Assembly (NCBI RefSeq): GCF_013315695.1 | Contig: NZ_CP054353.1 | Reading direction: 5' to 3' (one strand) | Length of the DNA: 64,000 nt | Source of the DNA: Escherichia coli | GTDB lineage: Bacteria > Pseudomonadota > Gammaproteobacteria > Enterobacterales > Enterobacteriaceae | Shown: in pieces, positions 52,109-53,967 of the stretch | How positions within the stretch are numbered: position 1 is the first letter of the stretch | Layout of the letters: each line of letters opens with the position of its first letter | Notes under the pieces: generated by a model | The model's database searches: none | Told to the model about the DNA's origin: nothing | The model's input: the letters and a program-made list of their open reading frames with translations, nothing else | Made by a program: the position numbers and the translations under genes

Positions 52109-52227
52109 ATATTCATCCCTGAAATGTATTAATGAAATAAACGATATTTTACGCGCAATAAATGTTTGGCGCATTAGTTGTTTGAGCGGAAAATATCTGG
52201 AAAGCAGATCACAGTAAATAAAAAAAC

Positions 52228-52244
52228 CTGCTGGTGAGGCAGGT
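52228..52244. terminator. Hairpin flanked by A- and T-runs upstream of yehL (terminator of the upstream gene)
   Basis: AAAAAAA-CCTGC-TGGTGAG-GCAGG-TTCTTTT. Confidence 0.5.
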
Positions 52245-52548
52245 TCTTTTATTTACTACTTTCAGGCCTAACACCACGGCCTGTGCAACATCGTGTTCCA
52301 ACGAACGAATTATAACCATCGGTGGACCCCGTTGCAATTAAGATAATGAGATTTATAATCCTGACTGTTGGGAGGTTGCGCCGGATCGAACCCATTTCAA
52401 GTCCTGGCTACCGGACGGGTGGTGCCGCAGGTAGTGCCCTGATCCGGAGTGCAACATCGTGGTCCAACATACGTAAACCAGTATCGACAGGCAGGTGATG
52501 CTGCCAACTTACTGATTTAGTGTATGATGGTGTTTTTGAGGTGCTCCA

Positions 52549-52824
52549 GTGGCTTCTGTTTCTATCAGCTGTCCCTCCTGTTCAGCTACTGACGGGGTGG
52601 TGCGTAACGGCAAAAGCACCGCCGGACATCAGCGCTATCTCTGCTCTCACTGCCGTAAAACATGGCAACTGCAGTTCACTTACACCGCTTCTCAACCCGG
52701 TACGCACCAGAAAATCATTGATATGGCCATGAATGGCGTTGGATGCCGGGCAACAGCCCGCATTATGGGCGTTGGCCTCAACACGATTTTACGTCACTTA
52801 AAAAACTCAGGCCGCAGTCGGTAA
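52549..52824 (+). CDS. insA: IS1 InsA
   Basis: 91 aa [43 protein letters not shown]. Confidence 0.9.
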
Positions 52825-53246
52825 CCTCGCGCATACAGCCGGGCAGTGACGTCATCGTCTGCGCGGAAATGGACGAACAGTGGGGCTATGTCGGGGCTAA
52901 ATCGCGCCAGCGCTGGCTGTTTTACGCGTATGACAGGCTCCGGAAGACGGTTGTTGCGCACGTATTCGGTGAACGCACTATGGCGACGCTGGGGCGTCTT
53001 ATGAGCCTGCTGTCACCCTTTGACGTGGTGATATGGATGACGGATGGCTGGCCGCTGTATGAATCCCGCCTGAAGGGAAAGCTGCACGTAATCAGCAAGC
53101 GATATACGCAGCGAATTGAGCGGCATAACCTGAATCTGAGGCAGCACCTGGCACGGCTGGGACGGAAGTCGCTGTCGTTCTCAAAATCGGTGGAGCTGCA
53201 TGACAAAGTCATCGGGCATTATCTGAACATAAAACACTATCAATAA
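52743..53246 (+). CDS. insB: IS1 InsB (expressed as InsAB' by -1 frameshift at TTAAAAAACTC)
   Basis: 167 aa ...[26 protein letters not shown]...; slippery A6C at about 52799-52809. Confidence 0.9.
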
Positions 53247-53261
53247 GTTGGAGTCATTACC

Positions 53262-53967
53262 CAGTAGCATATTCCAGACCGCCTTCCTGAATAATCTGAT
53301 CCATAACATCCTCACGCTCTTTATATCTCGTGCAGTGCAGTTCAAGTGCCGCGAGTACAGCCATTACCGGTGATGGTAATTTTGTCGTTTTCGGGCTGTT
53401 AATCAGATCGATCGCCTGAGCGATGAAGTTTTGCCACTCTAAAGTACAGGCGCTGAAGTCAAATGTAGCTGTTTTGTTATCCCGTTGCGACACGCCACAG
53501 GCTAAGCGACGTAACTGGGTTAATTTATCTACAGGTGTAACAGGATCTCCGGGAAAGCGGCGATGGCTTAAGGTGGTGGGTACGACTTCAAGCGGAAAAA
53601 CGACAGCAATATCTTTTGCCAGCCACGGTAAAATAACGTCTGTATTTTTGTCAGCCACGTAGATTTCTGGTGTAACTGAGGGCTGTTCCTGAATGATGGT
53701 AGAAAAGTCAGATAATTCGAGAGTTTTCGTTACCGTTCGAGTATGTTTCGATGTAGCATTCTCCGCTTGTTCCACATACCCCTTTTTCGTTTTCTCCGCA
53801 ATCAGCTTGAGTTCCGCTTTTTCCGCCGCCGCAGCATCTGCAAAGCTTTTTACCTGACTTTGCCCGTTGGTGCCGACTTTGCCCCAACTGATATTCAGTT
53901 CGTTTCCCTGCTGCTCCACCGCCCAGAATTTATGTGATTTTTCGTCCTGATAAATATAGGTTTTCAT
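53262..53967 (-). pseudogene. yehI-like gene (WGR domain N-terminus), 3' portion removed at the IS1 junction
   Basis: Minus ORF MKTYIYQDEKSHKFWAVEQQGNELNISWGKVGTNGQ... paralogous to the molR-like N-terminus; its reading frame terminates inside IS1; only about 235 codons remain. Confidence 0.6.

Follow-up and report, generated by a model that had tools for sequence, protein, structure and literature searches.

The window analysed here, a stretch of 64,000 nucleotides of Escherichia coli DNA (contig NZ_CP054353.1), carries a complete copy of the insertion sequence (IS) IS1, termed copy 1, within the molR–yehQ gene cluster, at a position where the closest relative without this element (strain AF14) holds 7,295 bp of other DNA. 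An IS1-bounded deletion, by whichever route it arose, appears practically certain, and the arrangement is best read as derived and not as the ancestral gene order, since a screen of 5,426 complete E. coli genomes found both exact junctions of copy 1 in just two. The event itself is ordinary, being a new instance of textbook IS-driven gene loss, and leaves the current understanding of IS1 unchanged. It nevertheless provides a clean natural case of gene shedding by an IS1-rich clone, in which the missing target duplication serves as a reliable flag of such loss.

Copy 1 and the 7.3-kb deletion

Comparison loci are labelled as follows: L002 is that of AF14 and L006 that of K-12, while the others among L003–L009 and L023–L027 cover the metG–yehR interval of other E. 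coli. Copy 1 and the features that adjoin it are:

52494..53261, plus strand: IS1 copy 1 (IS1A type), complete, 768 bp (exact terminal repeats, Pfam, RefSeq)
52494..52516: left inverted repeat (IRL), exact IS1 terminal repeat
53239..53261: right inverted repeat (IRR), exact IS1 terminal repeat
52549..52824, plus strand: insA of copy 1
52743..53246, plus strand: insB′ frame of copy 1
52800..52806: A6C motif of copy 1, for the −1 frameshift joining insA and insB′
52485..52493: left flank CGACAGGCA, equal to L002 1704..1712
53262..53270: right flank CAGTAGCAT, equal to L002 9008..9016
53257..53967, minus strand: 5′ fragment of a WGR+DUF4132 gene (yehF/molR type, middle of three paralogues; AF14 identity, Pfam)

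The chance expectation for exact matches to the IS1 terminal repeats is 0, and copy 1 has the terminal inverted repeats of about 23 bp and the length of about 768 bp by which IS1 is recognized. Its products match the Pfam families Zn_ribbon_InsA, HTH_Tnp_IS1 and DDE_Tnp_IS1, RefSeq labels it as an IS1A family transposase with programmed frameshift, and its sequence is identical to that of a second copy further along the window (copy 2, 63149..63916). IS1 duplicates 8–9 bp of its target (PMC12428005). No 8- or 9-bp duplication was found at copy 1, where CGACAGGCA and CAGTAGCAT match at 3/9 positions, i.e., at chance level; the direct duplication that characterizes a simple insertion is thus lacking. 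As a control, the same script detected 8–9-bp duplications at all seven simple IS1 insertions of the comparison genomes, five of them in the cluster (L003, L004, L008, L009, L026) and two in loci (L023, L025) that hold a duplication-less IS1 copy in addition, and likewise at a third IS1 of the same clone, found in MSB1_4I. All deletion-type copies (window, L005, L007, L024, L025, L027) are without a duplication.

AF14 is collinear with the window on both sides of copy 1 at 99.95 % identity, window 50782..52493 corresponding to L002 1..1712 and window 53262..63148 to L002 9008..18895, and it shares with the window an IS4 in the metG-proximal WGR/DUF4132 gene as well as a frameshift in yehP. Copy 1 stands in place of L002 1713..9007, with the flanks in the same orientation and both breakpoints abutting the IS1 termini; the first deleted base is ambiguous, as it is a G that also opens IS1. 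A 6-bp microhomology (ATTACC) at the right junction was rejected as a gapped-extension artefact of BLAST, which had run 6 bases into IS1; AF14 here reads ATTACAT directly followed by CAGTAGCAT, and the junction is without microhomology. Starting from the yehL side, the deletion removed the zor 5′ untranslated region (UTR) over its final 47 nt together with the 29-codon zor toxin open reading frame (ORF; L002 1760..1849 in AF14, MDTLTQKLTVLIAVLELLVALLQLIDLLK), then yehK, which is frameshifted already in AF14, then yehI in its entirety and lastly codons 236–1262 (1,027 codons) of the middle WGR+DUF4132 paralogue, a protein of 1262 residues in AF14. In line with this, a tblastn search of the entire 64-kb window gave no match to YehK, to true YehI or to the Zor peptide, and yehK is absent between IS1 and yehL. 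Genomes of other lineages retain yehI, yehK and at least two WGR/DUF4132 paralogues.

The original prediction, made from the window alone, had described an IS1 without target-site duplication, a minus-strand reading frame ending in its right end after about 235 codons and a missing yehK within a derived gene order, all of which was borne out. The loss it proposed is real as well, but larger than implied, given that all of yehI and the unnoticed zor toxin gene are gone. Its suggestion to map the endpoints on the metG–yehL region of K-12, on the other hand, would have mis-sized the event. Collinearity with K-12 ends at window position 52400, 93 bp before IS1, and the left breakpoint lies in sequence that is absent from K-12; because K-12 has two WGR/DUF4132 paralogues instead of three and no zor, the endpoints are not mappable on it, and AF14 was used as reference instead.

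The two complete genomes that carry both junctions, as determined with junction-spanning queries, are AF3 (UK, blood) and MSB1_4I (Australia, rectal swab). They are 100 % identical to the window over the 4.6 kb surrounding copy 1, a region that no other genome among the 5,426 covers, and the deletion is placed in the ancestor of the clone formed by AF3, MSB1_4I and the window strain. Furthermore, the exact 236-residue truncated product occurs in 216 blocks of a public assembly collection, mostly on contigs of 2–5 kb, as expected for a fragment between IS4 and IS1, while among the long contigs listed with complete sequence all have the same IS1–yehL arrangement. By these records, the deletion is fixed in a well-sampled clone.

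Routes to the deletion

A missing duplication is usually caused by adjacent deletion or by recombination between IS copies (PMC11708052), and we favor the former for copy 1, albeit with reservation. IS1 would have inserted at one of the two breakpoints with the usual 9-bp duplication, after which its transposase would have linked one of the IS1 ends to another target site of that molecule, at a distance of 7.3 kb. By such an intramolecular transposition (“adjacent deletion”), the intervening DNA would be lost and IS1 be left with one old and one new flank, and hence without duplication. Adjacent deletions start exactly at the element terminus (PMC9330008), and the scar in the window likewise consists of an intact IS, flanks that are collinear with AF14 and a deletion that starts at the IS terminus. 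It thereby resembles the IS1 adjacent deletions on record, which run from the terminus of an intact element to a variable distal site and leave no duplication (PMC9330008, PMC11708052).

Nested series with a fixed end are also found at this very locus in other strains. L027 and L007 have a common yehR-side junction (TTATTGAAAGCC abutting IS1) but differ in their yehF endpoint, which is nt 789 in L027 and nt 693 in L007; they form a nested pair of deletions extending from one fixed IS1 end. L026 is a simple insertion at nt 1040 with the 9-bp duplication TCAGTCGCC, and L005 retains the right junction of L026, all sequence from there as far as yehK being gone. Judged by these two pairs, adjacent deletion would seem to operate at the yeh locus in nature. 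The classical IS1 adjacent deletions, reportedly described by Reif and Saedler in 1975 for the gal region, were selected laboratory mutants, whereas the present example comes from a natural clone in which the insertion preceding the deletion was not observed.

Several observations weigh against this route. Recombination between two IS1 copies yields an identical product, so that the sequence does not discriminate between the routes, and of the adjacent deletion named by the original prediction it is only the deletion itself (7,295 bp by comparison with AF14) that could be established independently of IS1×IS1 recombination. Moreover, an IS1 at one breakpoint alone occurs in 0/5,426 complete genomes, leaving the first step undocumented. 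The hypothetical junctions expected of such intermediates are GGAGTCATTACC+CGACAGGCAGTGTAAGGG for the left site, with a duplication and intact zor, and TTACATCAGTAGCAT+GGTGATGCTGCC for the right site followed by the rest of the paralogue. IS1×IS1 recombination is, in addition, documented in the same clone 10 kb away, and with about 40 or more IS1-matching places in the genome a second nearby insertion is plausible.

A serious possibility, though not the one we expect, is accordingly that the zor 5′ UTR and the WGR gene (at codon 235/236) had each received an IS1 copy in a separate insertion with a 9-bp duplication, that both copies pointed the same way, and that RecA-dependent homologous recombination excised the 7.3 kb between them, leaving one hybrid IS1. 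Exactly such a route explains the second IS1 of the window, where recombination between direct IS repeats (copies 2 and 3, see below) has likewise produced a single hybrid IS with the flanks of two insertions, and the clone is rich in IS1 (at least 40 matching places in each genome). IS1 junctions of other lineages also recur in the 5′ region of yehF-type genes (nt 693, 706, 751, 789, 903, 976, 1040, 1058 and 1273), and beside the right breakpoint there is an AT-rich patch (30 % GC within 15 bp on either side) that makes a typical IS1 target, a preference for AT-rich targets being attributed to Zerbib et al. 1985 in the account given by PMC9330008. However, three events would be required instead of two, neither of the single insertions is present in any of the 5,426 complete genomes, so that, unlike for copies 2 and 3, the parental insertions of copy 1 are found in no genome, and nested deletions from a fixed IS1 end fit transposition better, the step from L027 to L007 measuring just 96 bp.

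The absence of intermediates would also be compatible with a single step, in which an incoming IS1 joins its ends to two targets 7.3 kb apart and thus combines insertion and deletion without any duplication, as was proposed for duplication-less IS5 and IS481 insertions with rearrangement (PMC11708052). We consider this very unlikely, as the mechanism is not established for IS1, all 14/14 cases of an IS plus a deletion in the long-term evolution experiment were stepwise adjacent deletions (PMC11708052), and intermediates do exist in other lineages at the same locus (L026 to L005). That there was no deletion at all, the order being ancestral or the assembly having collapsed across IS1 repeats, is effectively refuted. 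IS1 repeats are known to misassemble in short-read drafts, but nothing was found in favor of such an artefact here: two complete assemblies of independent origin, one from the UK and one from Australia, and long contigs of others share the same junctions, the truncated ORF equals the first 235 of the 1262 codons of a gene that AF14 has intact, the cut in the zor UTR falls in mid-element, and yehI, yehK and at least two paralogues are present in other lineages.

The truncated WGR gene, copy 2 and IS1 scars in the yeh cluster

The fragment ORF comprises 235 native codons, one junction Gly codon and a TAA at 53257..53259 within the right end of IS1. Across its 235 aa it is 100 % identical to AF14 WP_128430348 (1262 aa), the gene for which is located between yehI and the IS4-disrupted metG-proximal paralogue. 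Identity amounts to 76 % with K-12 YehF, to 40 % with the metG-proximal paralogue and to about 35–37 % with YehI, where the match is confined to residue 110 onward. Pfam detects WGR only in the fragment and WGR plus DUF4132 in the intact AF14 orthologue; YehI is a DUF4132 protein without WGR, and RefSeq names the fragment “WGR domain-containing protein, missing C-terminus”. The truncated gene had been taken for a yehI-like one, a misidentification that a K-12-centered comparison would have reinforced. By domain content and identity it is to be assigned to the yehF/molR type and not to yehI, as a family member by descent whose product would be a WGR-only stub with the DUF4132 part deleted. It resembles the K-12 yehF/yehH (molR) pseudogene in gene type (WGR N-terminus, 76 %) and as a case of family decay next to metG, but differs from it in that the K-12 disruption is not IS1-bounded and that K-12 has two paralogues and retains yehI and yehK.

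Decay of the cluster was under way before the IS1 deletion, as is evident from the IS4 in the first paralogue and from the frameshifts of yehP and yehK in AF14. The metG-proximal molR-like gene is split by IS4 (transposase 55672..57018) into 57080..59215 and 53980..55662, and because the same IS4 is present in AF14, its insertion is older than the IS1 deletion. The gene for the vWA protein YehP (47671..48737) carries a frameshift giving two ORFs and is annotated likewise in AF3, MSB1_4I and AF14; its presence in AF14 implies that damage to the yehLMPQ operon goes back to the wider lineage.

The number of paralogues varies among genomes, with three in AF14, EF5-18-41 and DETEC-E480 and two in K-12 (L006 4475..8270 as compared to L002 5925..14962). 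K-12 YehF shares 76 % identity with the middle paralogue and only 38 % with the metG-proximal one. The first approximately 200 nt of yehF, though, fall inside a long alignment of metG plus the beginning of the metG-proximal gene (96.6 % over the whole alignment), and over 199 bp at their 5′ ends the middle and metG-proximal paralogues are 91 % identical. Recombination between paralogues may thus have given rise to the two-gene arrangement of K-12.

The second IS1 of the window tells a related story:

63149..63916, plus strand: IS1 copy 2, with repeats at 63149..63171 and 63894..63916, in the same orientation as copy 1

Its flanks CAAACGTCG and TAAATAGGC show no duplication, and the end of yehE is cut. 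In AF3 and MSB1_4I (L010, L011), copy 2 is followed by a truncated yehA, with yehD, yehC, yehB and part of yehA lost. MSB1_4I also has a third IS1, 5.9 kb away, with a perfect 9-bp duplication of TAAATAGGC, whereas in the window copy 2 is directly followed by the right flank of that third element (TAAATAGGCTTG...). Since copy 2 bears the right flank of the third IS1, the window strain has lost the interval between copies 2 and 3 by IS1×IS1 recombination, a further 5.9-kb loss comprising the remaining yehA′, rcnB, rcnA, rcnR, a TPP riboswitch, an integrase gene and an HNH gene. The window strain is thus a third member of the clone, distinct from AF3 and MSB1_4I. An exchange of flanks between copies 1 and 2 was considered and rejected, as the four flanks have no common 8–9-mer; it is also excluded by the identical orientation of the two copies, recombination between which would delete metG and not swap flanks.

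The cluster from molR to yehQ encodes WGR/DUF4132 paralogues, a MoxR ATPase, a vWA protein and a SWIM protein, and its erosion by IS1 is seen in unrelated E. coli lineages (at least six scars, the window included). Besides the window, at least five duplication-less scars extend from yehF to the yehK, yehL or yehR side. Two pairs of loci have a junction in common (L027/L007 and L026/L005), and the junction of L007 is 13 bp from the position homologous to the right breakpoint of the window, beside the AT-rich patch. Five simple IS1 insertions with 8–9-bp duplications complete the picture, two of them in the yehL–yehK spacer and three in the yehF-type gene. These recurrent scars suggest that the uncharacterized yeh cluster is dispensable in many lineages. 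That they reflect selection against the yeh system and the adjacent zor toxin, instead of neutral decay at an IS1 hot spot, appears unlikely. A PADLOC search of the yeh proteins for known defense systems gave no match. The recurrence of scars across the cluster is the one aspect that may be worth a population-level study.

The zor–orz remnant upstream of yehL

The 319 bp to the left of IS1 are the remains of a zor–orz type I toxin-antitoxin locus, with yehL as the first gene past the left side of the deletion (assigned from the AF3 annotation of the identical region):

51020..52108, minus strand: yehL (MoxR-type AAA+ ATPase), intact (RefSeq in AF3; Pfam AAA_5, E=1.6e-34)
52220..52295, minus strand: gene for the Orz small RNA (sRNA) antitoxin (Rfam RF02083 OrzO-P, full length 1–76)
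52225..52245: orz terminator hairpin
52309..52359, both strands: divergent orz/zor promoters (consensus scan, 10/12 matches each)
52367..52493, plus strand: zor 5′ UTR remnant, about 127/174 nt (AF14 comparison)
52449..52468: predicted Orz pairing site within the zor UTR (19/20 positions complementary to the predicted Orz 5′ end)

The orz gene scores 98.9 bits in Rfam as compared to a gathering score of 60. Its predicted promoter (TTGCAA-17-TATAAT, minus strand, 52337 to 52309) faces away from that predicted for zor (TTGCAA-16-TATAAT, plus strand, 52332..52359), and both use the hexamers given as conserved for zor/orz (PMC11264685). The start of the zor UTR at 52367 follows from its published length of 174 nt, and IS1 cuts it 47 nt ahead of where the zor ATG would lie. 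Its location between yehI and yehL is already known for this locus, with Orz pairing 72–92 nt upstream of the toxin ATG (PMC2887945; PMC3919570), and the pairing site predicted in the window agrees in position (PMC2887945). No 29-codon Zor ORF is present in the 64-kb window, and the AF14 copy falls inside the deleted segment.

What is left is therefore an orz-only remnant and not a complete toxin-antitoxin system. Such orz-only loci occur in about 30 % of E. coli, MG1655 included (PMC11264685), and the window resembles them (e.g., OrzPmg of MG1655) in its full-length orz with conserved promoters upstream of yehL and in the missing zor ORF. It is unlike the published loci in that about 127 nt of the UTR and the pairing site are retained and the cut was made by IS1, whereas more than 99 % of orz-only loci have just 27–29 nt of the zor UTR, the pairing site being gone (PMC11264685). 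The window would thus add a rare allele to the known orz-only class, namely an orphan type I antitoxin with its target site kept and its toxin gone.

The zor promoter is directed into IS1, in the direction of insA. Read-through from flanking DNA represses IS1 cointegration according to Machida et al. 1983, as related in PMC12428005, and the zor promoter and pairing site could conceivably couple read-through repression of copy 1, or titration of Orz, to zor/orz regulation. On the side of yehL, expression is probably unaffected and a polar effect on yehLMPQ unlikely, because the 385 bp upstream of yehL are intact and exceed the entire yehK–yehL spacer of K-12.

Hybrid promoters at element ends are a known effect of IS1. 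A promoter-like site does lie across the left end of copy 1 (52480..52507, minus strand; a TTGGCA −35 hexamer in IRL and GATACT in the flank, 9/12), but as an outward promoter running from 52507 to 52480 it was dismissed as too weak and as directed at orz and its terminator.

The copy number of zor–orz also varies: EC24 and EF5-18-41 have two orz (L004 1075..1758; L003 10998..11681), AF14 has one, and in K-12, MDR_56 and the window orz occurs alone. The single Orz of AF14 mismatches its own zor target at 1/20 positions, as expected from a tandem pair that collapsed into a hybrid.

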